Positions 15,497 to 64,000 of a stretch of DNA of 64,000 nucleotides are shown here, piece after piece (position 1 is the stretch's first letter; every line of letters starts with the position of its first letter). Location of the stretch: positions 323,188 to 387,187 of the forward strand of contig CAJUTK010000002.1 of the NCBI GenBank assembly GCA_910589375.1. Reading direction: 5' to 3'. The stretch is from an uncultured Bacilli bacterium (GTDB taxonomy: Bacteria > Bacillota_I > Bacilli_A > RF39 > UBA660). The translations under genes and the position numbers were made by a program. A model generated the notes under the pieces. The model worked only from the letters and a program-made list of their open reading frames with translations, was not told where the DNA came from and ran no database searches.

Positions 15497-16366
15497 ATGG
15501 CGAAAAAGTTTAAGTCTAAAAGAAAGTTAAGGAAACTTTGGATTTTAAAATCTATCTTTTTAATAATATTAGTATATATTCTAATAAAACTATGTATTTA
15601 TTCTTTAGTAGATATAAGCCCGATATCTTATTTTAAAATAGAGACAGTAGGACATGAATTTTATCAGAAAATAAAGGATAATACTATTAATAATCCTGTT
15701 ATTTTATTAAATTATAAAGGTTACCCTAAAGTAAATTTACTTCCTGTTATAACGCCACCAAAGGAGGAAATTAAAAAATTTAGTATTTACATTTATAACA
15801 CACATCAAAAAGAGGGGTATGCTACTAAAGGAAATGTGTTTGATGCTGCTAAAGATTTAAAAAAGGCTTTAGAAAATGATTTATTAGAGGTAGTTGTTGA
15901 GGAAGGAAATATAACAGAGTTTTTAAATGCTAACAATTATGATTATAGGTATAGCTATGTAGCAAGTAGGTATTTTATAGAGGAAGAGTTAAGAAAGAGA
16001 AGCTATGACTTAGTGATAGATTTACATAGAGATGCTATTAGTAAAAGTGCCTCTACTGTAACAATTAATGGAAAGAAATACGCCAAAATTTTATTTGTTG
16101 TTGGTAAGGAACATAAAAATTATAAAAAAAATCAGAAACTAGCAGAAGCTTTAAACAAAGCAGTTTCTTCTAAATATCCAACTTTGACAAGAGGAGTTTT
16201 GTTAAGGGAAGGAAAGAATGTAAATGGAATTTATAATCAAGATTTAGGTGAAAATATGATATTGTTAGAATTGGGTGCTAATTATAATACTTATGAGGAG
16301 GTACAAAATACAATACATTTAATAGCGCCTATTATAGGAGAATATATATATGGAAAAAAAGTATAA
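15497..16366 (+). CDS. spoIIP: stage II sporulation protein P-like (SpoIIP amidase family)
   Basis: N-terminal TM anchor; IYIYNTHQKEGY and DLHRD motifs; LLELGANYNT. Confidence 0.65.
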   Translation: MAKKFKSKRKLRKLWILKSIFLIILVYILIKLCIYSLVDISPISYFKIETVGHEFYQKIKDNTINNPVILLNYKGYPKVNLLPVITPPKEEIKKFSIYIYNTHQKEGYATKGNVFDAAKDLKKALENDLLEVVVEEGNITEFLNANNYDYRYSYVASRYFIEEELRKRSYDLVIDLHRDAISKSASTVTINGKKYAKILFVVGKEHKNYKKNQKLAEALNKAVSSKYPTLTRGVLLREGKNVNGIYNQDLGENMILLELGANYNTYEEVQNTIHLIAPIIGEYIYGKKV

Positions 16367-34171: not shown

Positions 34172-34813
34172 ATGAATAAGAAACAAAAAATAACGATTGT
34201 TATAGTGTCTGTCTTATTTTTGTGCTATTTTTCCTATTCCTTTTTCTTTGAGAGGGAGGGAAAAGTAGAAGCAAAAGATCAAGATATAGTAGTTAATGAT
34301 AATATTCCAGATAAAGAAGTTAAGTCCATTTATAAAGTAGATATTAAAGGGCAAGTGGAAAAGCCTGGTGTTTATGAAGTAAATGAGAATGCTAGAGTCA
34401 TTGACGTAATAGAAAAGGCAGGTGGGTTAAAGAAAAACGCTAACACAGATTTTTTAAATCTAAGTAAGAAAGTTGTTGATGGAGATGTTATTTGGGTATA
34501 TACGACAAAAGAAATAGAGAAATTACAGAAAGTAAAGACGGTAATAGAATATGTAGAAAAAGACTGCCATTGCCCAGATGTTTCTAATAGTGCTTGCATT
34601 ACAAAGCCTACAACAAACAATCCAGGAAAAATCAATATCAATACAGCCTCTTTAAAAGAACTCATTACTTTAAATGGGATAGGGGATTCAAAGGCAAAAT
34701 TAATTATAGAGTATCGTACAAAAAAGCTATTTACAACTATTGAAGAAATTAAAAATGTTTCGGGTATTGGGGACAGTGCCTATGAAAAAATTAAAGATTT
34801 TATTGTCGTATAA
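34172..34813 (+). CDS. comEA: competence protein ComEA (SLBB plus tandem helix-hairpin-helix DNA-binding domain)
   Basis: N-terminal TM helix; C-terminal ININTASLKELITLNGIGDSKAKLII...VSGIGDSAYEKI. Confidence 0.8.
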   Translation: MNKKQKITIVIVSVLFLCYFSYSFFFEREGKVEAKDQDIVVNDNIPDKEVKSIYKVDIKGQVEKPGVYEVNENARVIDVIEKAGGLKKNANTDFLNLSKKVVDGDVIWVYTTKEIEKLQKVKTVIEYVEKDCHCPDVSNSACITKPTTNNPGKININTASLKELITLNGIGDSKAKLIIEYRTKKLFTTIEEIKNVSGIGDSAYEKIKDFIVV

Positions 34814-36794
34814 TATTATTCTTATTTTTCTAGCTATATTTACACTACTGAGAATTGTTTTTATATTTGGTAGACCATTATGTGAGAATGATAAGTTGGG
34901 GGAGAAAACAATTTCTGGAACAGTAAAAAGTATAGAGGTGACAGAATATAATACAAAAATACTTGTTCAAGATACTTTAATTACAGTAAAAACGAATGAT
35001 TTTAAACTGGGGAATAAAGTTGTCTGTAAGGGAGAAGTAAGTGAAGCTATTAGCCAAAGTAATTTTTATTTGTTTGATTATCAGAAATATTTAGCTAGTA
35101 GAGGCATTTATTATGTGATGAAAGGAGACTGTGAAGTAAAAGGTTTTTCAGTTAACTTTTTTTATCAAATTAAAAATAAAATGATTGAAATTATTAATAA
35201 AAATAAGAGTAGAGCTTATTTAAAAGCCTTCTTATTAGGTGATAATAAAGAAATAAATCAGAGTGTTAAGAAGAGTTATCAATTAAATGGTATTAGTCAT
35301 TTGTTTGCTGTATCAGGAATGCATGTTAGCTTTTTCTTTTTATTATTTGGAAAAATTTTTAAAAAGGAAAGAAGTAAAAATATTATTTTATTTGTATTTC
35401 TTCTTTTTTATTTGTTTTTGACAAATTTTTCTCCCTCTGTTATTCGTGCAAGTATATTTTTTTTCTTTGTTAAAATATTTTCAAGATGGGGATTTTCGAA
35501 TCTCCAAAGTTATGCCATATTTATTATGGTAATGCTTTGGTATAGACCATACTATTTATATCATACTGGCTTTCTATATAGTTTCACTATCAGCTTTTTT
35601 CTTCTTTACTATAGTACTTTTATTAACAGCGAAAAAAACTACTGGAAAGTCCTATTTAAGATTTCCTTTATTGCCATCCTTGCTAGTATCCCTATTCAAG
35701 TAGAAACAAATTTTTCTATCAATTTATTTTCTATTCTATACAATTTAATATTTGTTCCTATTATTTCTCAACTTCTTTTTCCTATGTCTTTTTTAGTTTT
35801 CCTATTGCCGTTTCTAGATTCCTTTTACTGTTTTTTAATTACTCTATTAGAAAATATGTCTTTATTTTTCATGAATATTCCAACTCATATTGTGTTGTGC
35901 CATTTAAATTCGTTATATTATATTTTTTATTATGGTATCATCTTTTTTATGATGCACAAAATAAAAGAAAAAGAATATAAATATATTGTAATACTATTTT
36001 TCTTATTAGGTTTCCATTTTTACTTACCAAGAATGAATTCTAGCGGTATGATTCTTATGATGGATGTTGGGCAGGGAGATAGTACTTTAATAGTTTATCC
36101 TTATCAAAAATTAAAAATATTAGTGGATACAGGCGGAATGTTTTCTAATCGTTCCATTTCTGAAAATACTATTATTCCTTCTATGCACGCTCATGGCGTT
36201 ACAACTCTTGATTACTTAATTTTAAGTCATGGTGATTTCGATCATGTTGGGGAAGCCAGAAATCTCTTAGAGAAAGTAAAAGTAGGAAAAGTATTTTTGA
36301 ATAGTGGGAATGATACAGAAGAGGAAAGAAAGATTATTGCGTATTTAGAAGAAAAAAAGATTCCTTATGAGAAAATTTCTGTTGGAACAATTAGTAGAAA
36401 GGGTATTCCTATTCAATTTTTAAATAGTGTAAAAATTGAAAATGAGAATGAGGATAGTCTTGTATGCTATTTAAAAATAAAAAATTTCTCTATTCTTTTA
36501 ATGGGCGATAGCGGTCATTTTGTAGAAAAAGAATTATTACAAGAATATAATCTTCCAACGGTGGATATATTAAAAGTAGGACATCATGGTTCTAAATACA
36601 GTAGTAGTTTAGAGTTTATATCTAAAATAAGTCCTTCCTTTTGTTTAATTTCTGCAGGACAAAACAATCGCTATGGTCATCCACACAAAGAAGCTTTAGA
36701 AAATTTGCAATTTTGTGACACCTATATAACGAGCATAGATGGCGCTATTAAAATAAAAGTAGGAAAATCTATGCGCGTTACTAAGGTACGCTAA
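34782..36794 (+). CDS. comEC: DNA internalisation competence protein ComEC/Rec2 (competence domain plus metallo-beta-lactamase domain)
   Basis: polytopic membrane region; C-terminal LILSHGDFDHVGEA...VGHHGS; start is uncertain (34740, 34755 or 34782) and overlaps comEA. Confidence 0.8.
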   Translation: MKKLKILLSYNIILIFLAIFTLLRIVFIFGRPLCENDKLGEKTISGTVKSIEVTEYNTKILVQDTLITVKTNDFKLGNKVVCKGEVSEAISQSNFYLFDYQKYLASRGIYYVMKGDCEVKGFSVNFFYQIKNKMIEIINKNKSRAYLKAFLLGDNKEINQSVKKSYQLNGISHLFAVSGMHVSFFFLLFGKIFKKERSKNIILFVFLLFYLFLTNFSPSVIRASIFFFFVKIFSRWGFSNLQSYAIFIMVMLWYRPYYLYHTGFLYSFTISFFLLYYSTFINSEKNYWKVLFKISFIAILASIPIQVETNFSINLFSILYNLIFVPIISQLLFPMSFLVFLLPFLDSFYCFLITLLENMSLFFMNIPTHIVLCHLNSLYYIFYYGIIFFMMHKIKEKEYKYIVILFFLLGFHFYLPRMNSSGMILMMDVGQGDSTLIVYPYQKLKILVDTGGMFSNRSISENTIIPSMHAHGVTTLDYLILSHGDFDHVGEARNLLEKVKVGKVFLNSGNDTEEERKIIAYLEEKKIPYEKISVGTISRKGIPIQFLNSVKIENENEDSLVCYLKIKNFSILLMGDSGHFVEKELLQEYNLPTVDILKVGHHGSKYSSSLEFISKISPSFCLISAGQNNRYGHPHKEALENLQFCDTYITSIDGAIKIKVGKSMRVTKVR

Positions 36795-48827: not shown

Positions 48828-50405
48828 ATGAATATGAATTTAGGACTTACTGATACATTAAATAGAGTATTAGGGTCAAAAGGAATTGCAAAAAAAGGAT
48901 TTGTTTTATTAAATACTACTAAGAAGAAAATTGTAGCTGCAAGTTTAGCATTTACATTAGCTGTAGGTGGAGGAACAGTTGCTTATAATCATTTTAATGG
49001 TGGATCTGCTGCTGACGTACCAGCACCACAGAATCCAGTGGTTACAAATGATTCAGAGACTCCAACAGATACTCCTGTTGCAACGGATCAATTTGGAATT
49101 TTAGCTGATGGTTTAGAAATTGATGGCTTAGGCATGAAAAATGATATGTTAACAATTGAAGAACAAGCTAAGAAAATAGCAGAGGAAATGGGTGCAACTT
49201 ATGATGGACCTTCATATGATGTAACTGATAAAGATGGTAATCCACAAAGTTGGGTTAGTGAGGACGATTATAATAAAGCAGTTGATGCTGGTTTACAAGA
49301 TGCTCCTGTTGGTACTGAAGTTACTACTTATGATCAAGACGTATTTGTTGCTGATGATGGTACTCCATTTGAAACAGAAGCTGATAAAGATGCATGGAAT
49401 GCTTATTTAAAACAACAAAATGACGGTAAAACTGGTACAGTTATAGAAACTGAAGGTAATGTTTATGTAGCTGAAGATGGTACTGTATGGGCTTCAAAAG
49501 AAGATGCAGATGCCTATAACAATTCACAAAATGGTACAGTAACTACTGTTACTGATGGAGATGTAGTAGAAGCTGGTGAAGGATATAGAGATCCAGAAGG
49601 TAATTATTGGACTAGCGAAGCAGAATATCAAGCTTATATTTCAGGTGTTAACAATATTAATGGCGGAAATAGTGTAGTTGGCGGAAGCGATGTAACTTAT
49701 GAAGATGATAACTTATATCGTGCACCAGACGGATCAGTATGGGCAAGCGAAGCAGAATACCAAGCATATATTTCAAATATCAACAATGTAGTTGGTGGAG
49801 ATAATGTAGTTGGTGGAAATGATGTAACTTATGATGATAATTTCTACCATGCACCAGATGGATCAGTATGGGCAAGTGAAGCAGAGTATCAGGACTATAT
49901 AAAGAGTCAAAGTTCTATGTCAGGTACTTTTGTACAAAATACTTCAACAGGAACACAAACCCAAGAACCACCAATAGAAGCAACAGATGATTTCTATCAC
50001 GCACCAGATGGATCAGTATGGGCAAGTGAAGAAGAATACCAAGCATTTGTAAATAGTCAACAATCTGAATCTGCAACTTATACTCAAACTTCTGCTGCAG
50101 AAACACCAGCACAAGAGCCACCAATAGAAGCAACAGATGATTTCTATTATGCACCAGATGGATCAGTATGGGCAAGCGAAGCAGATTATCAAGCTTTTGC
50201 AAATAGTGCTGTAGAAGAATCTCAAGAAGTAGTGGAGAGTTCTGAAGAAGAAAAGAAAAATGATATTGTTTTAGATGAATATGGCGGATACATTGATCCA
50301 GAAACTGGTTTCTATTGTGTAGATGGCGAATATTATGCTACGAAAGCAGATTATATTGCTTATAGACAAATGGAAAATGGTAATGATAACGAAAAAACAA
50401 TGTAA
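48828..50405 (+). CDS. secreted or membrane-anchored protein built from about nine ~20-aa repeats (consensus Y-x-A-P-D-G-S-V-W-A-S-E-A-E-Y-Q-A-Y); unknown family
   Basis: N-terminal signal-anchor (IVAASLAFTLAVGGG); repeats YRAPDGSVWASEAEYQAYIS, YHAPDGSVWASEAEYQDYIK, YHAPDGSVWASEEEYQAFVN, YYAPDGSVWASEADYQAFAN and more degenerate copies. Confidence 0.7.
   Translation: MNMNLGLTDTLNRVLGSKGIAKKGFVLLNTTKKKIVAASLAFTLAVGGGTVAYNHFNGGSAADVPAPQNPVVTNDSETPTDTPVATDQFGILADGLEIDGLGMKNDMLTIEEQAKKIAEEMGATYDGPSYDVTDKDGNPQSWVSEDDYNKAVDAGLQDAPVGTEVTTYDQDVFVADDGTPFETEADKDAWNAYLKQQNDGKTGTVIETEGNVYVAEDGTVWASKEDADAYNNSQNGTVTTVTDGDVVEAGEGYRDPEGNYWTSEAEYQAYISGVNNINGGNSVVGGSDVTYEDDNLYRAPDGSVWASEAEYQAYISNINNVVGGDNVVGGNDVTYDDNFYHAPDGSVWASEAEYQDYIKSQSSMSGTFVQNTSTGTQTQEPPIEATDDFYHAPDGSVWASEEEYQAFVNSQQSESATYTQTSAAETPAQEPPIEATDDFYYAPDGSVWASEADYQAFANSAVEESQEVVESSEEEKKNDIVLDEYGGYIDPETGFYCVDGEYYATKADYIAYRQMENGNDNEKTM
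49630..50215 (+). repeat. intragenic near-identical tandem DNA repeats (about 123-bp and 150-bp units) encoding the PDGSVWASE motif
   Basis: gcaccagatggatcagtatgggcaag(c/t)gaagcaga... occurs four times; a stretch of more than 60 nt, ccaccaatagaagcaacagatgatttctat...gcaccagatggatcagtatgggcaag, is repeated at about 49969 and 50119. Confidence 0.8.
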
Positions 50406-51144: not shown

Positions 51145-52140
51145 ATGAAAAAATTCATAAATTTTGTAAGAGATAATTGTTTATTTCTTATCATATATGT
51201 TGTTGTATTCTCCTTATTAATGGTTAAATTTCCATATTATATAGATGCACCAGGAGGTCTTATTAATGTTGACAATAGAATTGAAATAGAAGGAGGTTAT
51301 CTTTCTTCAGGCAGTCTTAATTTAGCTTATGTGACAGAATATGAGGCGACTTTACCTATGCTTTTTATATCTCTATTTAAAGATGATTGGGATGTTTATC
51401 CAAAGAAGAGTAATGAAGTATCTGATTCTTATGAAGATTTACTTGCTAGAGATAGATTATGGATGAAAGCTTCCTATGCGAATGCAACTATTTTGGCTTA
51501 CGAAAAGGCTGGTAAGGAAATTGAAATTACAGATAGAGAGCTTTTTGTTTTATATATTTATAAAGAAGCAAATACTGATTTGAAGGTAGGAGATGAATTG
51601 CTATCAGTAGAAGGAAAAGAAATACATGATAGAAAAGACTTGGCTTTAGCGATTTCTTCTAAAAAAGCTGGAGAATCTATTTCATTAAAGGTTCTTCATA
51701 ATGGAAAAGAATTTGATAGAACGGCAGAAGTTCTTGAAATAGATGGTACTAAGATTATTGGTATAGTTCCTTCTGAGATTAGGGAGTATAAAGCTAACCC
51801 TAGTATTAAAATATCTTATGGAGATTCAGAATCTGGTCCAAGTGGAGGATTGATGGTTACTTTAGCAATTTATAATGCTTTGGTAGAAGAAGATATTACA
51901 GGAGGGCTTACTATTGTAGGTACTGGAACTATTGAATCTGATGGTACTGTTGGTGAAATCGGAGGAGTAGAATATAAATTAAAGGGCGCAGTTGCTAAGA
52001 AAGCTGATTTATTTTTCGTGCCAGCTGGTATTAATTATGAGGAAGCTATAAGGTTAAAAGAAAAGAAAAAGTATTCTATTACTATTGTACCAGTTTCTAC
52101 TTTTGATGAAGCTTTAACTTATTTGAAAGAGAATGTATAA
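51145..52140 (+). CDS. SepM/YlbL-family membrane-anchored serine protease (PDZ plus Lon-like S16 C-terminal domain)
   Basis: N-terminal TM helix; PDZ region (LKVGDELLSVEGKEI); Lon-like serine motif GPSGGLMVTLAIYNAL. Confidence 0.75.
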   Translation: MKKFINFVRDNCLFLIIYVVVFSLLMVKFPYYIDAPGGLINVDNRIEIEGGYLSSGSLNLAYVTEYEATLPMLFISLFKDDWDVYPKKSNEVSDSYEDLLARDRLWMKASYANATILAYEKAGKEIEITDRELFVLYIYKEANTDLKVGDELLSVEGKEIHDRKDLALAISSKKAGESISLKVLHNGKEFDRTAEVLEIDGTKIIGIVPSEIREYKANPSIKISYGDSESGPSGGLMVTLAIYNALVEEDITGGLTIVGTGTIESDGTVGEIGGVEYKLKGAVAKKADLFFVPAGINYEEAIRLKEKKKYSITIVPVSTFDEALTYLKENV

Positions 52141-52201
52141 TAAATATTTGCAAACATTCTCTTTTTATGGTAGAATAGGTTCAATTAAGGAGGCTTGTGG
52201 T

Positions 52202-53176
52202 ATGAGAGTAAATAAAGAAGCCGCTTCAAAGATTAGAGGAAGGGCAAAAAAAACATTACGAAATTTCGTGAAAAGTAGTAGAGATACTGCTCTAGTATTA
52301 CCATCAGTACAAATTTTTTGTTCTGAAAAAATGACACAAGATTATCCCACTTACGCATATGTTCCTTACAATCAATTATGGGGGAATAAGGAAGCTATTC
52401 ACAAAATATCTATTCGGGTTGCTAATAATGGTTTAGGAATTGTCAATAAAAAAGATGCAAATCCAGAATTATTAAAAGAAATTTATCATTGCTTAGGAGA
52501 GGCAAAAGTAGAGAATTCAAAATATGATATTATTACTTTCCGTTTATGGAAAGATAATTCTAATATTCCTACAATTGATAGAACTTCATTTGCTTTCTAT
52601 AAGAAAAATATATCTTTATTAAGACCTTTTACTTGCATGGATGCTTATTTGCCAGTTACTGTTTTTATGGCACCAGATGGTCAGCAATGGGTTGATGAAA
52701 GAAATTATATAGTATATGCGAGTAATCAAAACGCAGTATATCAATGTAGTGATGGTACTCTTGCTAATTCTTATGATAAATTTAAAGATTGGGAATGTGA
52801 GTTAGCATATCATCCTCGTAATCCTTTATGTCCAACTTATTCAGACTCTCAAGAAACATTAGAAACTATTGGATATTTAGAGTGTAGTGATGGCACTATT
52901 TGGAGAGACTCTACTTTATTAGGGGAATATCTTGAGTGGAAAGAAAATAAAAATTATGGAATGAAAGATGGCCTTTATGTAGGTATGTATGGAACTTGTT
53001 CTAGTTTTGAAGATTATGCTAGATTTTATAATGCAGCTTATTATGTAAATGCTGGATTGTCTCGTGGAAGTCAGTTTTGCGGGGCTTATGGGTTCTTATA
53101 TTCTACTGAGGAAAGTGCTTTTATTTCTATTGATAAATTAAATGGATATCAGAAAGTAAAAAATAAAGAAAATTAA
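52202..53176 (+). CDS. hypothetical Cys-containing protein with three divergent copies of the DG-x-x-W repeat
   Basis: FMAPDGQQWVDERNYIVYASNQ, YQCSDGTLANSYDKFKDWEC and LECSDGTIWRDSTLLGEYLEWKE; preferred start at 52202 follows RBS AAGGAGG (the track ORF starts at 52133); my manual reading of the 3'-end coordinate disagrees with the track by 1 nt. Confidence 0.5.
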   Translation: MRVNKEAASKIRGRAKKTLRNFVKSSRDTALVLPSVQIFCSEKMTQDYPTYAYVPYNQLWGNKEAIHKISIRVANNGLGIVNKKDANPELLKEIYHCLGEAKVENSKYDIITFRLWKDNSNIPTIDRTSFAFYKKNISLLRPFTCMDAYLPVTVFMAPDGQQWVDERNYIVYASNQNAVYQCSDGTLANSYDKFKDWECELAYHPRNPLCPTYSDSQETLETIGYLECSDGTIWRDSTLLGEYLEWKENKNYGMKDGLYVGMYGTCSSFEDYARFYNAAYYVNAGLSRGSQFCGAYGFLYSTEESAFISIDKLNGYQKVKNKEN

Positions 53177-53229
53177 TAGAAAAATGGACTTTGGTCCGTT
53201 TTTTTGTTACAATGAATGAGGTGGTATGC

Positions 53230-55773
53230 ATGAAAATGAGTGACATTGATTACAACAAAATTACGCCTATGATGCGTCAATATATAGAAATAAAAAAAGC
53301 TCATCCAGATATTTTTATTTTTTTTAGATTGGGTGACTTTTATGAGGTGTTTTTTGAAGATGCTGTTACAGTATCTAGGGAGTTAGAACTTACTTTAACA
53401 GGTAGAAATGCTGGATTAGATGAGAGAGTTCCTATGTGTGGAGTACCTCACCATGCTGTTCATATTTATATTGAAAAGTTAGTGGATAAAGGATATAAAG
53501 TAGGAATCTGTGAACAGTTAGAAGACCCAAAAGAAGCTAAAGGATTAGTGGAAAGAGGATTAACTCAAATCATTAGTAAGGGAACTGTTATGAATAGTGA
53601 TAGCCTTTCAGAAAAAGACTTTAATTATATTGGGAATATTTTAGATTTTGAACATGCTTATGGTGTTGCTTATACAGATATTACAACTGGTATTTTATAT
53701 GTTATGTTAGTGCCACATCAATCTACAAAATTGGTAAGTGAAATTGTTTCTTTAGATATTAAAGAAGTAGTTGTCTCATCCAAAGTAGATAGAGGAATCC
53801 TTTCCATTTTAGAAAACCAATTTAAGATTTTAGTGACAATTAATGATGATATAGTAGATATTGAAGATTACAAAAATGTTTATGAAGATATAACAGATGA
53901 TAGACTCGTTATGGCAATTAAACATTTATTAACCTATATTACAAGTACTCAAATGAAGTCTTTGTCACATATTCAAAGGGCAGTTATAAAAGAAAATAAA
54001 AATGTACTAAAGATGGATATGCATACAAAGAGAAATCTAGAATTAACAGAAACTCTGCGTTTAAAGCAAAGAAATTTCTCGCTTATTTGGTTACTTGATA
54101 AAACCAAAACAGCAATGGGCTCTAGAATGCTTAAAAGTTATATTGAAAATCCACTTATCAATAAAGATGACATTAATAGAAGGTATGATGTAGTAGAAAA
54201 ATTATTAGAAGAATTTTTGTTAAAAGAAGATCTTAAAAATTTACTTTATGAAGTTTATGACTTGGAGAGATTGAGTGGTAGAATAGCATTTGGTAATGCG
54301 AATGCTCGGGATTTGATTCAATTAAAAAGTAGTTTAAAAGTATTACCAGATATTGCTAATATTTTGTCTGCTCTTTCTTATTCTACTTTTAGTCCATTAA
54401 CAGACTTATATGAGTTATTAGAAAAAAGCATTTATGAGAATCCTCCTATTGGTATTAAAGAAGGCTCTATTATTAAAGAGGGATTTTCAGAAGAATTAGA
54501 TGAGCTGAAAGATTTACGAAAAGGCGGTAAAGATTTTGTTGCTCGTTTTGAAGCTGAGGAAAGAGAAAAGACTGGAATTAAGACTTTAAAGGTTGGATAT
54601 AATAAGGTATTTGGATATTATATAGAAGTATCTAAAGGAAGTATTAATTTAGTAAAAGAAGAATATGGGTATGAGAGAAAACAAACTTTAAGTAATTGTG
54701 AACGTTATATTAGCCCAATTTTAAAAGAGAAGGAAGCTTTAATATTAAATGCAGAAGAACGCATTATAGAGTTAGAGTATCAATTATTTATAAGTATTCG
54801 TGATAAAATTAAAGAATATATTCCTAGAATACAGGAAATTTCTAAAATTATTAGCGAGATAGATGTATTGCAATCTTTTGCAACAGTGGCAGAAGAGAAT
54901 AATTATATTCGCCCGATTTTAACAGATAAGAGAGAAGTAAAACTAATCGAGAATAGACATGCTGTAGTTGAGAAAGTTCTTGCAAGTGAGTATGTAGCAA
55001 ATGATATCATAATGGATGAAAATACTGATATTTTATTAATTACAGGACCAAATATGGCTGGAAAAAGTACTTATATGAGACAATTTGCAGTTACTGTGAT
55101 TATGGCTCAAATAGGTTGTTTTGTTCCAGCGAAAGAGGCAATCTTACCGGTTTTTGATGCAATTTATACGAGAATTGGAGCAAGTGATGATTTAGTAAGT
55201 GGTGAATCTACTTTTATGGTAGAGATGAAAGAAGCAAATGATGCTGTTTCTAATGCTACAGAAAACAGTTTAGTTTTATTCGATGAATTAGGTAGAGGAA
55301 CTGCCACTTTTGATGGAATGGCTTTAGCGCAAGCAATTATTGAGTATATTCACGATCAAATCCATTCTAAAACAATTTTTTCTACGCATTACCATGAATT
55401 AACGGATTTAGAAAAAACATTAAAGAATTTAAAAAATATTCATGTAAGTGCTTATGAAGAAAATGGGAATATCACTTTTTTACATAAGATTAAGGAAGGT
55501 AGCGTAGATAAGAGTTATGGTATTCATGTTGCTCGCCTTGCATCTTTGCCTGATTCTTTAATAGACCGTGCTACTAATATTTTATCTATCTATGAAAATA
55601 AAGAAAGAAATAGAGATATTAAAGTACAGGAGGCACTTCCACTAGATGATTTAGTTTCTAAAAAAGATGAGCTTAGAGATAAATTAAAGGAATTAGATCC
55701 TTTGCAAATAACACCAATGCAAGCGCTATCAACTTTGGTAGAGTTAAAAGAATTAAGCAAGAAGGAGAATTAA
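53230..55773 (+). CDS. mutS: DNA mismatch repair protein MutS
   Basis: mismatch-binding N-terminus (ITPMMRQYIEIKK...LGDFYEVFFEDA), Walker A GPNMAGKSTYMRQ, DELGRGT, C-terminal helix-turn-helix; preferred start follows RBS GAGGTGG. Confidence 0.9.
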   Translation: MKMSDIDYNKITPMMRQYIEIKKAHPDIFIFFRLGDFYEVFFEDAVTVSRELELTLTGRNAGLDERVPMCGVPHHAVHIYIEKLVDKGYKVGICEQLEDPKEAKGLVERGLTQIISKGTVMNSDSLSEKDFNYIGNILDFEHAYGVAYTDITTGILYVMLVPHQSTKLVSEIVSLDIKEVVVSSKVDRGILSILENQFKILVTINDDIVDIEDYKNVYEDITDDRLVMAIKHLLTYITSTQMKSLSHIQRAVIKENKNVLKMDMHTKRNLELTETLRLKQRNFSLIWLLDKTKTAMGSRMLKSYIENPLINKDDINRRYDVVEKLLEEFLLKEDLKNLLYEVYDLERLSGRIAFGNANARDLIQLKSSLKVLPDIANILSALSYSTFSPLTDLYELLEKSIYENPPIGIKEGSIIKEGFSEELDELKDLRKGGKDFVARFEAEEREKTGIKTLKVGYNKVFGYYIEVSKGSINLVKEEYGYERKQTLSNCERYISPILKEKEALILNAEERIIELEYQLFISIRDKIKEYIPRIQEISKIISEIDVLQSFATVAEENNYIRPILTDKREVKLIENRHAVVEKVLASEYVANDIIMDENTDILLITGPNMAGKSTYMRQFAVTVIMAQIGCFVPAKEAILPVFDAIYTRIGASDDLVSGESTFMVEMKEANDAVSNATENSLVLFDELGRGTATFDGMALAQAIIEYIHDQIHSKTIFSTHYHELTDLEKTLKNLKNIHVSAYEENGNITFLHKIKEGSVDKSYGIHVARLASLPDSLIDRATNILSIYENKERNRDIKVQEALPLDDLVSKKDELRDKLKELDPLQITPMQALSTLVELKELSKKEN

Positions 55774-55789
55774 AAATTCTTCTTTTTTA

Positions 55790-55818
55790 TTGACTTTCTT
55801 GACATCTTTTTTTATAAT
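55790..55818 (+). promoter_or_regulatory. sigma-A promoter (TTGACT-17-TATAAT) for the pilin operon
   Basis: TTGACT at 55790-55795, 17-nt spacer, TATAAT at 55813-55818. Confidence 0.6.
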
Positions 55819-55833
55819 GAATATGGTGAGAAT

Positions 55834-56421
55834 ATGAAAAATAGAGGGTTTACATTAGTAGAATTATTAGCTGTTATTACTTTGATGGCTTTATTAGCAT
55901 TAGCGGCTTTTGAATTATTAGATTCTGTCAATAAAGGAAATAAAGAGAAAGCTGAAAATGTACAGATAAGCAATATTTTAACATCTGCTATTTCCTATAT
56001 TTCAACTAGCGAAATAAAGCTACCAGATGTAGCAGATGCTTATGCTGATAAAAGGGGCATTTCTAATTGTGCGGGCAAATCAAATGGGGAGCTTAACCAA
56101 GCTAGTTATAATGACCTAGAAGATGAAAAAAAAGTTGTTCAAAATATGCAAAAAGAAGGATATACAAAGATATGTAGTACAAGAGTAAGTCTTAAGTATT
56201 TAAGCAAAGTTGGAATTGTTGAATCTAGAATTAAGAATCCTATTACAGGGAAATATTATAGTATGGCTGAATCAGAAATTTTAATTTATTATATTACAAA
56301 TGCTCGTAAAGCAGAAGAGGAACTACAATTAAATTTAACTTATAGAGATGATACTAAAATGGATAAACCATGGAAATATGATGGCAACTATTTATATTTC
56401 TTTGACTTTAAGGAGGAGTAG
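55834..56421 (+). CDS. type IV pilin / pseudopilin
   Basis: MKNRGFTLVELLAVITLMALLALAAFE class III signal. Confidence 0.75.
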   Translation: MKNRGFTLVELLAVITLMALLALAAFELLDSVNKGNKEKAENVQISNILTSAISYISTSEIKLPDVADAYADKRGISNCAGKSNGELNQASYNDLEDEKKVVQNMQKEGYTKICSTRVSLKYLSKVGIVESRIKNPITGKYYSMAESEILIYYITNARKAEEELQLNLTYRDDTKMDKPWKYDGNYLYFFDFKEE

Positions 56422-56428
56422 GTGAATT

Positions 56429-56947
56429 ATGAAAAACAATAGAGGGTTTACATTAGTAGAAATAGTAGCAGTGGTAGTTATTTTAGGATTAATAGGGCTC
56501 TTTGTCGGACCTGCTGTAATCAAAGTAATCCGTGGAGCTAGAACGGATGTAAAAGAGGTAAATATAGATACTGTTTTAAATGCTGCTTATGATTTTTCTC
56601 AAAAATATATGAAAATTTTACCAGATTCTACACCTGGTGTTGTAAGTGAGGAAGTATGTGCTTACGAATTAATTACTTGTGGCCTATTAAAATCTGAGAT
56701 AGTAAGTGGTAAAAATCCTCAAATAGAAAACTTTGAAACGGCCACATTTTCTATTACTTATTGTGATCAGGTTCATGACGCTAGTGAGGTAGCAGGCACT
56801 TCTTTATCAGCTTGTGTTAGTGATCCTACAGATGGTAAATATTTTGGTCACTATCTTTTTACTTATCATGAAAATGGAAATGTAAGTAATTGTGATAAGG
56901 TTAGTTGTAGATATCGTCCTAGTTTAAATACAGATACAACTTCTTAA
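56429..56947 (+). CDS. type IV pilin / pseudopilin
   Basis: MKNNRGFTLVEIVAVVVILGLIGLFVGPAV class III signal; RBS AGGAGGAG. Confidence 0.75.
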   Translation: MKNNRGFTLVEIVAVVVILGLIGLFVGPAVIKVIRGARTDVKEVNIDTVLNAAYDFSQKYMKILPDSTPGVVSEEVCAYELITCGLLKSEIVSGKNPQIENFETATFSITYCDQVHDASEVAGTSLSACVSDPTDGKYFGHYLFTYHENGNVSNCDKVSCRYRPSLNTDTTS

Positions 56948-56975
56948 GTGGTTAAAGAATAGAGGGAGAAGAATC

Positions 56976-58250
56976 ATGAAAAAGTATTTATTAAGTATAG
57001 CAATTGTTTTTACATTCTTTTTAGGAATAGAGACCACTTATGCTATAGAGAATCATAAGAATGAAGAAAATAGTGATAATTTATATACTTTAACCTTATC
57101 TGGTGAGTATGACTATGATATTATTTATGAAGTATTAACTCTCGTAAATACATATCGAAAAAAAGAGGGTTTGAATACTTTAAAACTTGATAATACTTTA
57201 ACTGAGATTGCTATGACTAGAGCTCGTGAAACTTCTACATACTGGAGTCACACTAGACCAAATGGTAATAGTTGGAGTACTTTAGTAACCCACTATACAG
57301 GCTATGTAGGAGAAAATATTGCTGTAAATTATATCAATCCTAAAGATGTTATGATAGGATGGATGGAGTCGAAAGGTCATCGCGATAATATATTAAACTC
57401 CAGATGGAATTCTATTGGAATTGGCTACTATAGAATTGGCAATAATATTCTTTGGGTTCAAATCTTTAGTGATAAAAAAACAGTAGCTACTGTTGAGAAA
57501 AAAGGAAACATCAAAGAAATTGATGGAACAGTAGAAATATTAAGCAATTATATTGATTTTCGTGTATTATGGGATAAAGATTCTATTTCTGTAAAAGTGG
57601 ATGAACAAGTATCTCCTAATGGAGTAGAATTTATCAATAATGGCTATGATAAAATTGTAATACCAACTGCTAAAGAGGATTATATTTGGAAGAGTTCTGA
57701 TACTAATATTTTTACAGTAGATGAAAATGGGAATATTTACGGTAAAAAAGTAGGAGATGCTATCCTATCCGTTTCTATTGGAAATGTAGAGAAGAGATAT
57801 CCAGTAAGTGTTAGTGCAGATTTAAAATCTATTTCTCTTCTAGAATCTATTTCTCTATCTATTGGTAATACTAAAGAATTAAGCGTAATTTATTATCCAG
57901 AGAATGCAACGCTTCCAGTAAATAGTGAAGTTATATGGACTTCAAGCAATCCAGAGGTCGCAACCGTTAAAGATGGAAAAGTAGTTGCAATTAGTACTGG
58001 TACTGCTACTATTATGGCAACTTTAGGTGATAAAAAGGCAAGCACCAAAGTTACTGTGCTTCCTACTGTTTTAGGAGATAGCGATGGAGATAATGTAATA
58101 GGAATTAAAGATTTAGTTAATTTTTTCCATGCAACTAGTAGATCTATGACTTCTGTTAATGATTTAATGACTTTAGATATTAATAAAAACGGATATATTG
58201 ATATCATGGACATCTTTTATATGATGTATAATGGTTATCTAAATAGGTAA
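56976..58250 (+). CDS. secreted CAP (SCP/PR-1/YkwD-like) domain protein with Big_2 Ig-like domains and a C-terminal dockerin-like double Ca-binding repeat
   Basis: signal peptide; CAP motifs (HTRPNG..., GWMESKGHRDNILNSRWNSIGIGYY); Big_2-like segments; dockerin-like DSDGDNVIGIKDL and DINKNGYIDIMDI. Confidence 0.65.
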   Translation: MKKYLLSIAIVFTFFLGIETTYAIENHKNEENSDNLYTLTLSGEYDYDIIYEVLTLVNTYRKKEGLNTLKLDNTLTEIAMTRARETSTYWSHTRPNGNSWSTLVTHYTGYVGENIAVNYINPKDVMIGWMESKGHRDNILNSRWNSIGIGYYRIGNNILWVQIFSDKKTVATVEKKGNIKEIDGTVEILSNYIDFRVLWDKDSISVKVDEQVSPNGVEFINNGYDKIVIPTAKEDYIWKSSDTNIFTVDENGNIYGKKVGDAILSVSIGNVEKRYPVSVSADLKSISLLESISLSIGNTKELSVIYYPENATLPVNSEVIWTSSNPEVATVKDGKVVAISTGTATIMATLGDKKASTKVTVLPTVLGDSDGDNVIGIKDLVNFFHATSRSMTSVNDLMTLDINKNGYIDIMDIFYMMYNGYLNR

Positions 58251-58279
58251 GAAACTTCTTAAAAAAGTTTCTTTTTTTC
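58249..58279 (+). terminator. rho-independent terminator
   Basis: AAGAAACTT-cttaaaa-AAGTTTCTT followed by T7. Confidence 0.75.
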
Positions 58280-58354
58280 TTATAAAATAACATTTTTTTG
58301 GAATTTGTTTGTGTAAAGTTTAAAAATTTGTTATAATACTGTAAGGTGATGAGA

Positions 58355-60265
58355 ATGACAAAATATGATGAGAGCTCTATCAAAATATTAGAAGGATTGG
58401 AGGCAGTAAGAAAGCGTCCTGGAATGTACATTGGATCAACCGATAAAAAAGGATTACATCACCTTATTTGGGAGATAGTAGACAACTCTATCGATGAAGT
58501 AATCAACGGTTATGGGAATAGAATTCGTATTGTAATTCATAAAGATCACAGTGTTAGTATAGAAGATGAGGGACGTGGTGTTCCTGTTGGAAAGCATGCA
58601 AGTGGGAAAGATACTCCAGAAGTAATTTATACGGTACTACATGCAGGTGGAAAGTTTGAATCTAGCGGATATAGTGTATCAGGAGGGCTTCATGGTGTGG
58701 GTGCCTCTGTTGTAAACGCCTTATCTAAATGGATGAAAGTAACTATTAAAAGAGATGGTTATGAGCATTTCATCTCTTTCAAAGACGGTGGACAGCTAGA
58801 TCAAAAATTAACAAAATTAGATAAAACTTCTAAAACTGGTACAAAGGTACAGTTTTTACCAGACAGTGAGATTTTTCAGACGACTTCTTTCTCTTTTTCA
58901 ACAATTTGTGAAAGAATGCAAGAAAGTGCCTTTTTATTACAGGGGCTTACTATTGAAGTAGTAGACGAAGAAGATCAAAAGCAAGAGATATTTCACTATG
59001 ATAACGGTTTAAAATCCTTTGTAGAATATATTAATGAGGATAAAGAAGAACTTCATAAGGTTGTGGAATTTAATGGAAATAAAAATAAGATAGATGTTTC
59101 TGTAGCATTTCAATATACGACAGGCTATTCAGAAAGCATTATATCGTTTGTTAACAACGTAAAGACAACCGATGGCGGTTCTCATGAAGTAGGATTTAAA
59201 ACAGCCTTAACTAAAGTATTTAATGATTATGCACGTGCTAATGGGTATTTAAAAGCGAAAGATAAAAACTTAGAAGGCCCAGATACTAGAGAAGGATTAA
59301 CGGCTATTATTAGTTTAAAAATACCTGAGGCTTTATTACAATTTGAAGGTCAGACAAAGTCTAAGTTAGGAACACCGGCAGCCCGTACTGTAGTGGAAGC
59401 TGTTGTCTCTGAAAAATTACAATACTTTTTAGAAGAAAATAAAGAAATTGCGACGAATATAGTAGGAAAGATGCTAAAAAGTAAAGTAGCACGTGAAGCG
59501 GCCCGTAAAGCAAGGGATGAAGCTCGTAATGGAAAAGATAAACAGAAAAAGGAAAGAGCTTTAAGTGGAAAACTTACGCCAGCACAGTCTAAAAATCCTA
59601 GTATTAATGAATTATTCTTAGTCGAGGGAGATTCTGCTGGAGGGTCTGCTAAAACGGGAAGAGATAGAAAATATCAGGCTATATTACCTTTACGTGGTAA
59701 AGTATTAAATACAGAAAAAGCTTCTCTAGATGAAGCTTATAAAAACGAAGAAATCAATACAATGATTCATGCTATTGGAGCAGGTGTTGGAAGTGACTTT
59801 GATATAGAAGACAGCAATTATGATAAAGTTATTATTATGACCGATGCTGATGTTGATGGCTCTCATATTCAGATTTTATTACTTACTTTCTTTTATCGTT
59901 ATATGAAACCATTAATTGAGCATGGACACTTATATATCGCAATGCCCCCATTGTATAAAATAGAATGTGGTAAAGAAGGAGAGTATGCTTGGACAGAGGA
60001 AGATCGTAAAAATCTTTTGGAAAAGTATAAAGGAAAACAAACTAAAACGCAAAGATATAAAGGATTAGGAGAAATGGACGCTACTCAGCTATGGGAAACA
60101 ACCATGGATCCACAAACTAGAAGTTTAATCAAAGTAAGCATCAGTGATGCAGCATTAGCAGAAAAAAGAGTATCTGTCTTAATGGGAGATAAAGTAGCTC
60201 CTAGAAAAGATTGGATAGAAGAAAATGTAGAATTCTCTTTGGAAGATGACTACAAAATTAATTAG
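58355..60265 (+). CDS. parE: type IIA topoisomerase B subunit; topoisomerase IV ParE is favoured over GyrB
   Basis: GHKL ATPase N-terminus, TOPRIM (EGDSAGG) and PLRGK motifs; the paired A subunit lacks a GyrA-box; the locus is not near dnaA. Confidence 0.6.
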   Translation: MTKYDESSIKILEGLEAVRKRPGMYIGSTDKKGLHHLIWEIVDNSIDEVINGYGNRIRIVIHKDHSVSIEDEGRGVPVGKHASGKDTPEVIYTVLHAGGKFESSGYSVSGGLHGVGASVVNALSKWMKVTIKRDGYEHFISFKDGGQLDQKLTKLDKTSKTGTKVQFLPDSEIFQTTSFSFSTICERMQESAFLLQGLTIEVVDEEDQKQEIFHYDNGLKSFVEYINEDKEELHKVVEFNGNKNKIDVSVAFQYTTGYSESIISFVNNVKTTDGGSHEVGFKTALTKVFNDYARANGYLKAKDKNLEGPDTREGLTAIISLKIPEALLQFEGQTKSKLGTPAARTVVEAVVSEKLQYFLEENKEIATNIVGKMLKSKVAREAARKARDEARNGKDKQKKERALSGKLTPAQSKNPSINELFLVEGDSAGGSAKTGRDRKYQAILPLRGKVLNTEKASLDEAYKNEEINTMIHAIGAGVGSDFDIEDSNYDKVIIMTDADVDGSHIQILLLTFFYRYMKPLIEHGHLYIAMPPLYKIECGKEGEYAWTEEDRKNLLEKYKGKQTKTQRYKGLGEMDATQLWETTMDPQTRSLIKVSISDAALAEKRVSVLMGDKVAPRKDWIEENVEFSLEDDYKIN

Positions 60266-60274
60266 GAGTGAATT

Positions 60275-62800
60275 ATGAAGAAGAAACAAGAAGAAACAGT
60301 ATTAGGAAAAATTTATGATTACACTTTAGAAGATATTATGGGAGATCGTTTTGGCCAATATGCGAAAGATATCATCCAAAATAGAGCTATTCCTGATGTA
60401 AGAGATGGATTAAAGCCAGTACAAAGACGTATTCTTTATGCTATGTTCCGCGATAAGAACACATATGAGAAAGCTCATAAAAAAAGTGCAACAGCAGTAG
60501 GAAATGTAATGGGCCATTACCATCCACATGGAGATTCTTCTATCTATGAAGCTATGGTTCATATGAGCCAGTGGTGGAAGCAGAATGAATGCTATATCGA
60601 TATGCATGGTAACAATGGTTCTATGGATGGTGATGGACCTGCTGCGATGCGTTATACAGAAGCGCGCCTTTCTAAAATAAGTGGAGAATTATTAAAAGAT
60701 ATTGATAAGAACACTATTGAATGGGCCCCTAACTTTGATGACACATTATATGAACCAATTGTACTACCTGCTAAATATCCAAACCTTTTAGTAAATGGAG
60801 CAAAAGGTATTAGTGCAGGGTATGCAACTGAAATCCCCCCTCATAACTTAGGTGAAGTAATTGATGCGACTATTAAGAGAATTGATAGCCCAAATTGTCG
60901 TTTAGAAACTATTTTAGATATTGTAAAAGGTCCAGATTTTCCAACTGGTGCTATAGCAGAAGGAAAAAAAGAAATAGAAGAGGCGTTAACTACTGGTCGT
61001 GGGAAAGTAGTAATACGTTCTAAATATGAAACAGTAGAAGATAAAAATAAAAAACAAATTATTATTCATGAAATTCCTTTTGAAGTAAATAAAGCAGCTC
61101 TTGTAAAAAGAATAGCAGATATTATTTATGATAAAAAAATAGATGGTATTTCAGAAGTACGTGATGAATCTGATAGGGAAGAATCAGTACGTATCGTTAT
61201 CGATTTAAAGAAAGATGCGAATACAGAAAATATTATTAACTATCTATTTAAAAATACAGAGATGCAGATTAATTATAACTACAATATGGTTGCTATTGTA
61301 AATAGAAGACCAATGGTTGTTGGCGTTGTTGAGGCCCTAGATGCTTATATTGCTCATCAACGGGAAGTTATTACAAGAAGAACTGAATTTGATTTAGAAC
61401 ATGCTAAAGCCAGAATGCATATTGTAGAAGGGTTAATAAAAGCTTTAGATATTTTAGATGAGATAATCCATACTATTCGTTCTAGTAAGAATAAGCAAAA
61501 TGCTATTGATAATTTAGTGAGTATGTACGATTTTTCGGATAAGCAAGCAGAAGCTATTGTGAATTTACAACTTTATCGTTTGACCAATACAGATGTTGAT
61601 GTATTAAAAGAAGAATATAATAATTTACTTTTAATTATTCAAGGACTAGAAGCTATTTTAGCGGATGAGAATAAATTAAAGAATGTTATGAAAGAAGAAC
61701 TTAGAAAGATAAAAAATGAGTATGCTACGCCTAGAAAAACAGAAATAAAAGCGGAAATAACAGAAATTAAAGTAGATACTACTTCTATGATTCCAAAAGA
61801 GGATTGTGTAGTGGTAGTTAGTAAAGATGGTTATGTAAAAAGGGTTTCTACTAGAAGCTATCAGGCTAGGACAGAAAATACTGCTTTAAAAGAAGGCGAT
61901 TATGTTTTAGGTTTATACGAGCTAAATACTTTAGATACTATTTTATTGTTTACAGATTTAGGAAACTATTTGTATATTCCAGTTTATGAACTTCCAGATT
62001 TAAAATGGAGAGACTTAGGAAAACATGTAAGCAATATTATTCAAATTAGTTCAGATGAAAATATAATAGCAAGTATCCCAGTATCTAATTTTACGGATAA
62101 ACAGGCTGTTACTTTTGTATCACGTGATGGTATGATTAAACGTACATTACTTTCTGACTTAAAAGTACAGAGATATACAAAACCACTTGTCTGTATGAAA
62201 TTAAAATCTGATGATAGAGTAGTAGATGTAAAATTATCATCTGGTAAGAATGTGTTTATTGCTACTCATGGTGGATACGGCCTACGTTATTCTATTAGTG
62301 AAGTACCAATTACTGGAGTTAGAAGTAGTGGAGTGAAAGCTATTTCTGTAAAAAATGATTTTGTAGTTAGTTTCTCATTATTTAATAATGAAGAATTTCT
62401 TACTATCATTACTAGTAAGAATACTGGAAAACGTGTTCATATGCAAGAGTTTGAATTAGCTAGTCGAGGTAGAAAAGGTTCAAAATTAATTAGGGAAGTA
62501 AAAACTAACCCATATTATATTTTAAAAACATTTGTATCAAATGGTAAAGATTTATTAGGTCTTAGATGTCTCAATGATAATTTAGAGGTAAAAATGACAG
62601 AACTTCCAATTGCTGATAGGCAGTCTACTGGATCAGTTATTACAAAAGCTGTAGTGGAAGATGTCTACATTATAACGGATTTAGAGCATCAAGAAGAAGA
62701 GGTAATAGAAATAAATGAACCAGTTTCTTTAAATACAGTGGATGAACAAATTATGACCATAGATGATTTTCTAGATAATTTTGATATAGGAGAAAAATAG
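60275..62800 (+). CDS. parC: type IIA topoisomerase A subunit; topoisomerase IV ParC is favoured over GyrA
   Basis: catalytic Tyr region AAMRYTE; no QRRGGKG GyrA-box at the start of the C-terminal domain. Confidence 0.6.
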   Translation: MKKKQEETVLGKIYDYTLEDIMGDRFGQYAKDIIQNRAIPDVRDGLKPVQRRILYAMFRDKNTYEKAHKKSATAVGNVMGHYHPHGDSSIYEAMVHMSQWWKQNECYIDMHGNNGSMDGDGPAAMRYTEARLSKISGELLKDIDKNTIEWAPNFDDTLYEPIVLPAKYPNLLVNGAKGISAGYATEIPPHNLGEVIDATIKRIDSPNCRLETILDIVKGPDFPTGAIAEGKKEIEEALTTGRGKVVIRSKYETVEDKNKKQIIIHEIPFEVNKAALVKRIADIIYDKKIDGISEVRDESDREESVRIVIDLKKDANTENIINYLFKNTEMQINYNYNMVAIVNRRPMVVGVVEALDAYIAHQREVITRRTEFDLEHAKARMHIVEGLIKALDILDEIIHTIRSSKNKQNAIDNLVSMYDFSDKQAEAIVNLQLYRLTNTDVDVLKEEYNNLLLIIQGLEAILADENKLKNVMKEELRKIKNEYATPRKTEIKAEITEIKVDTTSMIPKEDCVVVVSKDGYVKRVSTRSYQARTENTALKEGDYVLGLYELNTLDTILLFTDLGNYLYIPVYELPDLKWRDLGKHVSNIIQISSDENIIASIPVSNFTDKQAVTFVSRDGMIKRTLLSDLKVQRYTKPLVCMKLKSDDRVVDVKLSSGKNVFIATHGGYGLRYSISEVPITGVRSSGVKAISVKNDFVVSFSLFNNEEFLTIITSKNTGKRVHMQEFELASRGRKGSKLIREVKTNPYYILKTFVSNGKDLLGLRCLNDNLEVKMTELPIADRQSTGSVITKAVVEDVYIITDLEHQEEEVIEINEPVSLNTVDEQIMTIDDFLDNFDIGEK

Positions 62801-62826: not shown

Positions 62827-62847
62827 TATACTATGTTAGGTGGTAAT

Positions 62848-63195
62848 ATGTCTAAAGAGTCTTTTAAAGAATTTGTAAGAAAGAATCCAAAATTAGTAAC
62901 GCATGTAAATAGTGGGGATATGAATTGGCAGAAATTTTATGAGATGTATGACATGTATGGTGAAGAAAATGAAGTATGGACCCCTTATTTGGCAACTCCT
63001 AAAAAAAAGGAAGAGAATACACATTCTGATTTTATGGATTATTTTAAAAATATTAATTTAGATTCTGTTCAAGAATCGATTGCTAGTATCCAAAGAGTTT
63101 TAGGAGTGCTTGGAGATTTAGCAGTTACTAAAGAGGCTACAGATACAAAACCTGCTTATGAGCCAAAGCCAATCTATAAACATTTTGATGACTAA
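62848..63195 (+). CDS. YlbD-like protein (from my recollection of the B. subtilis YlbD putative coat protein family)
   Basis: KESFKEFVRKNPKLV...NWQKFYEMYDMYGEENEVW resembles the YlbD N-terminal pattern; RBS AGGTGG. Confidence 0.4.
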   Translation: MSKESFKEFVRKNPKLVTHVNSGDMNWQKFYEMYDMYGEENEVWTPYLATPKKKEENTHSDFMDYFKNINLDSVQESIASIQRVLGVLGDLAVTKEATDTKPAYEPKPIYKHFDD

Positions 63196-63972: not shown

Positions 63973-64000
63973 TATGTGAAAAAGGAGGCTCTTGGCTTTC

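Follow-up and report, generated by a model that had tools for sequence, protein, structure and literature searches.

A conserved type IV pilin pair beside a probable variable slot for dockerin-bearing secreted proteins in an uncultured gut Bacilli lineage

Type IV pilins of Gram-positive bacteria, such as PilA1/PilJ of Clostridioides difficile and PilE1/PilE2 of Streptococcus sanguinis, have a leader ending in Gly, Phe at +1, Glu at +5 and a hydrophobic helix, with a conserved N-terminus and a variable head; their genes stand in tandem, in a genome region that also encodes a prepilin peptidase, a PilB-type ATPase and a PilC-type platform. Cellulosomal dockerins, such as those of Clostridium thermocellum CipA (X-module plus type II dockerin; 2b59, 3kcp) and Xyn10B/XynY (type I; 1ohz, 2ccl), consist of a duplicated 12-residue Ca loop, with some 33 residues from one copy to the next and a helix behind each; they form the very C-terminal end of secreted proteins, directly after an Ig-like module. 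Dockerins also occur on proteins of gut and rumen Firmicutes that are unrelated to plant fibre breakdown, and in rumen metagenomes they have been documented on proteases and other proteins that are neither carbohydrate-active enzymes (CAZymes) nor fibrolytic (PMC6487960). Bacterial CAP/SCP proteins (YkwD, 4ifa, DalA) are extracytoplasmic and carry a CAP domain. These traits come together in the three-gene cluster described here, which lies in a 64,000-nucleotide (nt) stretch of DNA (hereafter the window) from an uncultured Bacilli bacterium (contig CAJUTK010000002.1, positions 323,188 to 387,187) and encodes two pilins and a CAP protein with a dockerin-type C-terminus.

We read the locus, with moderate confidence, as a conserved type IV pilin pair beside a variable slot for dockerin-bearing secreted proteins, in which the CAP protein is anchored through a cohesin and its gene has been merged with the pilin genes into one operon in this strain. 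An earlier note on this DNA had taken the same cluster as a hint of a pilus-associated complex, and the comparison with relatives below speaks against that suggestion.

The three-gene cluster between mutS and parE

The cluster comprises three open reading frames (ORFs), all on the + strand, flanked by mutS (53191-55773) upstream and a parE/parC-like topoisomerase pair (58346-62800) downstream. Its features are as follows (aa, amino acids).

55761-55788, + strand: terminator-like hairpin and T-run at the end of mutS (RNAfold -10.2 kcal/mol, z=-2.1)
55790-55818, + strand: sigma-70-type promoter, TTGACT-17-TATAAT (11/12 match, top score in the region)
55834-56421, + strand: pilin A, 195-aa prepilin with leader MKNRG/FTLVE, predicted cut after Gly (N_methyl, TIGR02532)
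56429-56947, + strand: pilin B, 172-aa prepilin with leader MKNNRG/FTLVE, predicted cut after Gly (N_methyl, TIGR02532)
56976-58250, + strand: secreted CAP/Ig-like/Big_2/dockerin protein, 424 aa (Pfam, homologues)
56976-57044, + strand: putative Sec-type signal peptide, MKKYLLSIAIVFTFFLGIETTYA/IE (cut before IE), no lipobox, recognised by eye in the translation
57135-57467, + strand: CAP (SCP/PR-1, YkwD-like) domain, aa 54-164 (PF00188, 73.7 bits, cutoff 21.1)
57669-58055, + strand: two Ig-like spacer modules, about aa 232-279 and Big_2 at aa 291-360 (Big_2 55.2 bits, Big-like 40.8 bits)
58074-58247, + strand: divergent dockerin-type module, aa 367-424 (58 residues), two Ca loops with a helix after each
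58249-58280, + strand: terminator-like 9-bp AT-rich hairpin and T-run 3′ of the CAP gene (RNAfold centroid -6.6 kcal/mol)

The spacing of 7 nt between the pilin genes and 28 nt between pilin B and the CAP gene, as well as the promoter, agree with what the earlier note had reported. The promoter boxes also score 11/12 in the related locus L001, where the flanking DNA is only about 76% identical. One caveat attaches to the promoter: the end of the -10 box is 15 nt from the ATG, leaving a leader of only about 9 nt, which would start at the Shine-Dalgarno sequence GGTGAG (55825-55830). The hairpin at the end of mutS has equivalents in L001 and L004, and probably insulates the pilin unit against upstream transcription. 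Read-through from mutS was considered as a source of transcription and is disfavored by this hairpin with its T-run and by the conserved promoter. The hairpin behind the CAP gene was missed by a consensus scan because it is AT-rich, and has counterparts in L004, L001 and L006. Folding of both gaps between the three genes gave no hairpin or terminator, and a promoter scan of the region gave no promoter-like site of at least 9/12 ahead of the third gene. With a 28-nt gap free of hairpins and promoter-like boxes, and terminators on either side, the cluster is consistent with a single transcription unit, and co-transcription of the three genes in the window strain is probable.

Both pilins carry the prepilin signature, taken here as a short basic leader ending in Gly, Phe or Met at +1, Glu at +5 and a hydrophobic stretch of about 20 residues: MKNRG|FTLVELLAVITLMALLALAAF in pilin A and MKNNRG|FTLVEIVAVVVILGLIGLFVG in pilin B. 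They pass PF07963 N_methyl (30.8 and 28.6 bits, cutoff 21.2) and TIGR02532 (28.2 and 23.8 bits, cutoff 16.3), so that their identification as class-III-signal pilins stands. Against the NCBIfam equivalogs of named pilins (GspG-J, ComGC-GG) neither has a match anywhere near the cutoff, and the matches obtained cover the N-terminal helix only (for example, GspG at 29.2 versus 88.9 bits and ComGE at 23 versus 49 bits). An AlphaFold2 (AF2) model of pilin A, with a predicted local distance difference test score (pLDDT) of 86.9, shows a helix at residues 8-58 and an alpha/beta head with several helices; the head domains of the pilins have no significant sequence or structural match among solved pilins. 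Both families are tiny and confined to this lineage, with 39 clusters for pilin A and 14 for pilin B among 5.8 billion proteins. An exhaustive profile search for pilin A among 1.84 billion proteins returned only 14 full-length representatives and no functional lead, and profile scans of genome and metagenome collections gave mostly N-terminal-helix matches, with true orthologous loci only in L013, L014 and L095. Across the 14 homologue clusters of pilin B, Cys77, Cys155 and Cys160 are conserved.

The third protein has the CAP and Big_2 domains that had been attributed to it. In its CAP domain, E85, H92, E113 and H135 do not vary among 10 homologues, and we take these residues to be the CAP tetrad. 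The nearest solved structure is 4ifa_A (E=1e-8 in a PDB search). The domain lies below the subfamily cutoffs of YkwD (TIGR02909, E=5e-26, 91 bits versus 171) and DalA (NF052539, 47.3 bits versus 200). DalA of Rhodobacter sphaeroides is a bacterial CAP lipoprotein that binds peptidoglycan non-covalently (PMC10470522), and by analogy an envelope-directed role of the CAP domain is possible. The Big_2 score is spread over two stretches, whose PDB matches are Big_2 domains of LigA/LigB. In other Firmicutes, homologues of the CAP protein bear SLH domains, choline-binding repeats, ChW repeats or a canonical dockerin at the equivalent C-terminal position, and such wall anchors at the matching position fit a surface-anchoring role. 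Architectures of CAP, Big_2/FN3 and Dockerin_1 recur among the homologues (P0008, P0015, P0023, P0050, P0051, P0057). A literature search for CAP or SCP-like proteins with dockerins found nothing relevant.

The position behind the pilins in relatives

Orthologous loci come from gut-metagenome assembled genomes (MAGs) labelled 'uncultured Bacilli bacterium', and identity of ParE to that of the window served as the yardstick of relatedness. Behind the pilin pair, these loci continue as follows.

L004 (ParE 99%): 28-nt gap, then the CAP gene, as in the window
L001 and L013 (ParE 98%): hairpin and T-run, TATAAT box, CAP gene
L006, with the same layout in L009 (ParE 97.5%): terminator, TTGTAA-17-TATAAT promoter, gene for a 650-aa protein with Big_2 and the one-loop remnant of a dockerin, CAP gene
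L095 (ParE 97.3%): terminator, TTGTAA-17-TATAAT promoter, gene for a 662-aa protein with an uncharacterised region, Big_2 and a dockerin; no CAP gene
L011 (ParE 91%), L012 and L014 (89%), L010 (83%): terminator, then parE; no CAP gene

Pilin B lies directly 3′ of pilin A in every relative examined, and the order mutS-pilin-pilin-parE is kept without a CAP gene in the more distant relatives. The pilins thus occur without a CAP gene in L010, L011, L012, L014 and L095. Where a gene is inserted behind them, it differs from one relative to the next: some have the CAP gene, others the gene for the 650-aa protein followed by the CAP gene, and L095 has the gene for the 662-aa protein by itself. In L001, L006, L009 and L095 the pilins are separated from the next gene by a terminator and a promoter, and the 28-nt junction is seen only in the window and L004 (92% identical). 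From this comparison across relatives, the pilin pair can be regarded as the conserved, ancestral element of the locus, and the position behind it as a variable slot for dockerin-bearing secreted proteins that normally have their own terminator and promoter. The 28-nt junction seems to have arisen recently, when the terminator and promoter were lost, and through this loss the CAP gene of the window and L004 would now probably be read from the pilin promoter. Co-transcription, as claimed earlier, is probable for the window but would not extend to close relatives with an intervening terminator and promoter. The operon linkage of the pilins and the CAP gene is, on the sequences compared, best taken as a strain-level accident and not as evidence for a pilus-borne complex.

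The genes inserted in the slot all end in one dockerin subtype, DxNxNGxIDIxDI. The proteins encoded by the alternative slot genes (L095 7135-9123, L006 901-2832, L009 1338-3287) are 643-662 aa long. In each, about 530 residues at the N-terminal side form an uncharacterised region, which is combined with one Big_2 domain and with the shared dockerin subtype, which in L006 and L009 has been cut down to a single Ca loop. Distant homologues with the CAP-Big_2(-dockerin) layout (L007, L093, L094) have no pilin neighbours.

Sequence divergence sets the island between mutS and parE apart from its surroundings. At 98% identity in ParE and 89% in MutS, pilin A is 58%, pilin B 51% and the CAP protein 47% identical, and the island evolves far faster than the flanking genes. 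Compared with L004, the flanks have 92-93% DNA identity, and the stretch encoding the head of pilin A (56017-56443; L004 5066-5468) cannot be aligned. Synonymous divergence (dS) of pilin A is 1.09, as against about 0.38 in the flanks. An elevated dS together with an unalignable head between alignable flanks indicates that the head has undergone cassette-style allele replacement by recombination. Among relatives, the N-terminal helix of pilin A is near-invariant and its head domain highly variable; this near-invariance, and the swapping of the head between close relatives, suggest that pilin A is an exposed, and probably the major, subunit. In the same comparison, the ratio of nonsynonymous to synonymous divergence (dN/dS) is 0.12 for pilin B and 0.094 for the CAP gene, as against 0.01-0.05 for housekeeping neighbours; these ratios come from L004 only, since dS is saturated (about 1-1.4) and unreliable for L001. 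They indicate purifying selection on the CAP gene, and pilin B and the CAP protein are in all likelihood functional and less constrained than housekeeping genes, as is usual for exposed surface proteins.

The comparison bears directly on the possibility that the dockerin-like module attaches the CAP protein to pilin A, pilin B or a pilus-borne adaptor, with the three genes forming one system. Tight spacing and probable co-transcription in the window and L004 would fit such docking, as would the presence of dockerin-bearing genes next to the pilin pair in 5/5 close-clade locus variants, so that some functional link may exist. A classical cohesin, moreover, was not found nearby: in agreement with the earlier note, a Pfam scan of about 55 window ORFs and a reading of unannotated ones turned up none. 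Against docking on the pilus, the pair is retained without any such gene in L010, L011, L012 and L014, a terminator and promoter intervene in the four close relatives named above, and homologues with the CAP-Big_2-dockerin architecture are found elsewhere without pilin neighbours. Additionally, the alpha/beta fold modelled for pilin A, with its several helices, is unlike the beta-sandwich of cohesins, and the other dockerin proteins of the lineage are unrelated to pilins. We therefore consider docking on the pilus very improbable. A stronger version, in which the DxNxNGxIDIxDI subtype binds some part of the pilus, be it the variable head of pilin A, that of pilin B or a further component, with no classical cohesin involved, draws on the adjacency in five close-clade variants and the lack of a nearby cohesin, and strikes us as exceedingly improbable. 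If it were true, the pilus would be a scaffold for the display of the CAP protein and others exchangeable with it, comparable to a cellulosome but borne on a pilus.

Wider use of dockerins in the lineage is seen in a secreted 686-704-aa protein that every relative encodes; it has a Cadherin-like domain and a fully canonical C-terminal dockerin, and its gene lies a few kb downstream, right after an rsmD-like gene (L013 18241-20301, with equivalents in L001, L004 and L010-L012). In the window strain, the equivalent gene would begin just beyond position 64000. The lineage thus seems to display proteins through a cohesin-dockerin system of a non-cellulosomal kind.

The dockerin-type module of the CAP protein

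The C-terminal module has the layout of a dockerin, a duplicated 12-residue Ca loop with D/N at positions 1, 3, 5 and 12, each copy followed by a helix. Loop 1 (D368-D379) reads DSDGDNVIGIKD (D-S-D-G-D-N-V-I-G-I-K-D) and loop 2 (D401-D412) reads DINKNGYIDIMD (D-I-N-K-N-G-Y-I-D-I-M-D), each of 12 residues, and G367, D368, D379, D401 and D412 are invariant in 10 homologues. Loop 1 begins immediately after the Big_2 domain, without an entering helix, which makes the motif an F-hand, the dockerin arrangement, and not an EF-hand.

Searches with the module point in the same direction. All six of six orthologues match Dockerin_1 at E<=10 (best E=8.1e-7), and the homologue P0003 has a precomputed PF00404 match. 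With the single module sequence, phmmer against the PDB ranked the X-Doc of CipA (2b59_B, E=6.8e-5) and XynY (2ccl_B, E=0.0036) ahead of calmodulin, which came only at E of at least 0.11; in the alignment to 2b59_B, LDINKNGYIDIMDI stands opposite LDINRNGAINMQDI. A profile of the orthologue modules had the XynY dockerin as its top PDB match (2ccl_B, E=2.6e-6) and also found the type II dockerin of CipA, with calmodulin at about 4e-5. By single sequence and by profile, the module is thus closer to solved dockerins than to EF-hand proteins. Comparison with 7 canonical dockerins by hhalign gave 97.4% probability and E=1.2e-11 over 54 gapless columns.

One possible explanation for the same motif is a generic extracellular EF-hand pair, serving Ca sensing or stabilisation, in a CAP protein that is released to the medium. 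It draws on the scores of Pfam models: the isolated C-terminus reaches only 11.1 bits (E=0.48) with Dockerin_1 (PF00404), whose cutoff is 22.9, and Dockerin_1 is absent from the matches reported for the whole protein, whereas EF-hand_1/6/7 score about 22.7 bits, above the Dockerin_1 score yet below their own cutoffs. Calmodulins also come up in the profile search of the PDB. An AF2 model of 68 aa, of low confidence (pLDDT 60.6), shows loop-helix-linker-loop-helix, and the best Foldseek match of this model, the C. thermocellum double dockerin 8x3a, is non-significant (E=3.6). Because model confidence is low, the assignment as dockerin or EF-hand relies on sequence and profile evidence. There, dockerins lead both PDB searches, the hhalign comparison is gapless, orthologues reach Dockerin_1 at E=8e-7, the entering helix of an EF-hand is missing, and homologues bear wall anchors in the equivalent position. 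A released EF-hand protein is accordingly an unlikely account, and decidedly so. Taking together the Dockerin_1 matches of orthologues, the PDB ranking, the hhalign result and the missing entering helix, we favour a divergent dockerin over a generic EF-hand as the identity of the module. Of the dockerin pair described in the earlier note, both motifs are present as 12-residue loops and the wider evidence favours a dockerin, but the Dockerin_1 threshold, the yardstick which that note itself had chosen, is failed.

The sub-threshold Dockerin_1 score, the higher EF-hand scores and the weak structural model, like the lack of a cohesin in the window and the constant adjacency of pilins and dockerin genes described above, weigh against a cohesin-anchored CAP protein, the reading that we nevertheless prefer. 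According to that reading, the CAP protein would be exported by Sec, the two Ig-like modules would hold the CAP domain off the cell surface, and the divergent dockerin would tether the protein, non-covalently and in a Ca-dependent manner, to a cohesin-bearing surface protein encoded elsewhere.

Pilus machinery, neighbouring genes and comparison with known systems

Putative genes for assembling the pilins lie about 10 kb upstream of the pair, within a type IV pilus gene cluster that spans 40797-47791, so that a prepilin peptidase and an assembly ATPase and platform are present in the same genome.

40797-42779, + strand: PilC/T2SSF-type platform protein, 660 aa (T2SSF 173 bits)
42782-43576, + strand: prepilin peptidase, PilD (A24_N_bact 116 bits, Peptidase_A24 54.5 bits)
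43606-45147, - strand: T2SSE/PilB-type assembly ATPase, 513 aa (T2SSE 418 bits)
45258-45758: degenerate pilin-like gene (AFVLIE motif) beside the pilus machinery
45755-47791: 678-aa prepilin (GFTVVE) with Listeria-Bacteroides repeats and DUF11, beside the pilus machinery

The peptidase would cleave both pilins after Gly, and the PilC-like platform and PilB-like ATPase (40.8-45.1 kb) would build a type IV pilus or pseudopilus from them. The 678-aa prepilin is likely an adhesin-type pilin. The PilC-like protein is unusual at its N-terminus, which is extended by about 250 residues that include a Lys/Glu-rich segment.

As to the kind of filament, and that question only, the pilins could instead be ComG-type competence pseudopilins for DNA uptake, with the CAP gene an unrelated passenger. 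ComEA and ComEC are encoded in the window (34172-36794), as is a ComGC-like pilin (13089-13463), both pilins have weak N-terminal matches to ComGE, ComGD and ComGF, and a Pfam scan of the window ORFs found no PilT or PilMNO genes near the machinery. The ComG matches, however, cover the N-terminal helix only and fall far under the family cutoffs. The ATPase (513 aa) and the platform (660 aa) are larger than typical ComGA and ComGB, an adhesin-like prepilin stands beside the machinery, and exposed major pilins typically show allele swapping such as that observed for the head of pilin A. A competence filament is on balance unlikely, and we continue to regard the pair as type IV pilins.

Other genes of the window are recorded here for completeness. 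The ComGC-like gene at 13089-13463 is an isolated third prepilin gene (124 aa, sub-cutoff) that directly follows a two-component system (10986-13026) and borders on a ThiF-family gene. A 525-aa protein at 48828-50405 has no Pfam match. It has a membrane anchor at its N-terminus, contains a motif like (Y)xAPDGSVWASEAEYQAY in about seven copies, and is possibly a surface repeat protein. At 52133-53176, a Cys-rich 347-aa protein without a family match is encoded by a gene that overlaps the end of a Lon/PDZ gene (51145-52140); its position upstream of mutS is kept in all relatives, but its sequence changes quickly, with 55% identity where ParE has 98%. The window also contains SpoIIP (15497-16366) and YlbD-type (62833-63195) genes, and relatives have YlbE; from the SpoIIP and YlbD-type genes, this low-GC (31%) Bacilli lineage may form spores.

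The locus adds to the picture of a little-known uncultured gut Bacilli lineage that would encode type IV pili and dockerin-tagged, non-enzymatic surface proteins. The genes of both kinds share a surface island that evolves fast and has a housekeeping gene on either side. The locus should be useful for annotating the MAGs of this lineage and for studies of how the surface differs among strains of gut bacteria, and it provides a small example of how the loss of a terminator and promoter may merge neighbours into an apparent operon. It reveals no new mechanism, and the idea of a dockerin-displaying pilus is disfavored by the comparative data.

Set beside the closest described systems, the locus differs in several respects. 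Unlike the Gram-positive type IV pilins, the pilins here have heads without a significant match to solved pilins and belong to tiny, lineage-restricted families, and their genes stand between mutS and parE, at a distance of 10 kb from those of the machinery. Unlike cellulosomal dockerins, the module scores under the Pfam Dockerin_1 gathering threshold and tags a CAP domain instead of a carbohydrate-active enzyme or scaffoldin; its host is an uncultured gut Bacilli bacterium and not a cellulolytic clostridium, and its cohesin partner is putative. Homologues that combine CAP with Dockerin_1 (P0008 and others) pass the dockerin hidden Markov model and have no adjacent pilin genes. In contrast to YkwD and DalA, for both of which it falls below the cutoff, the CAP protein here is not a lipoprotein and carries Ig spacers and a dockerin. 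Both components are nonetheless of known kinds, the one a set of lineage-specific type IV pilins and the other a CAP protein with a divergent dockerin.

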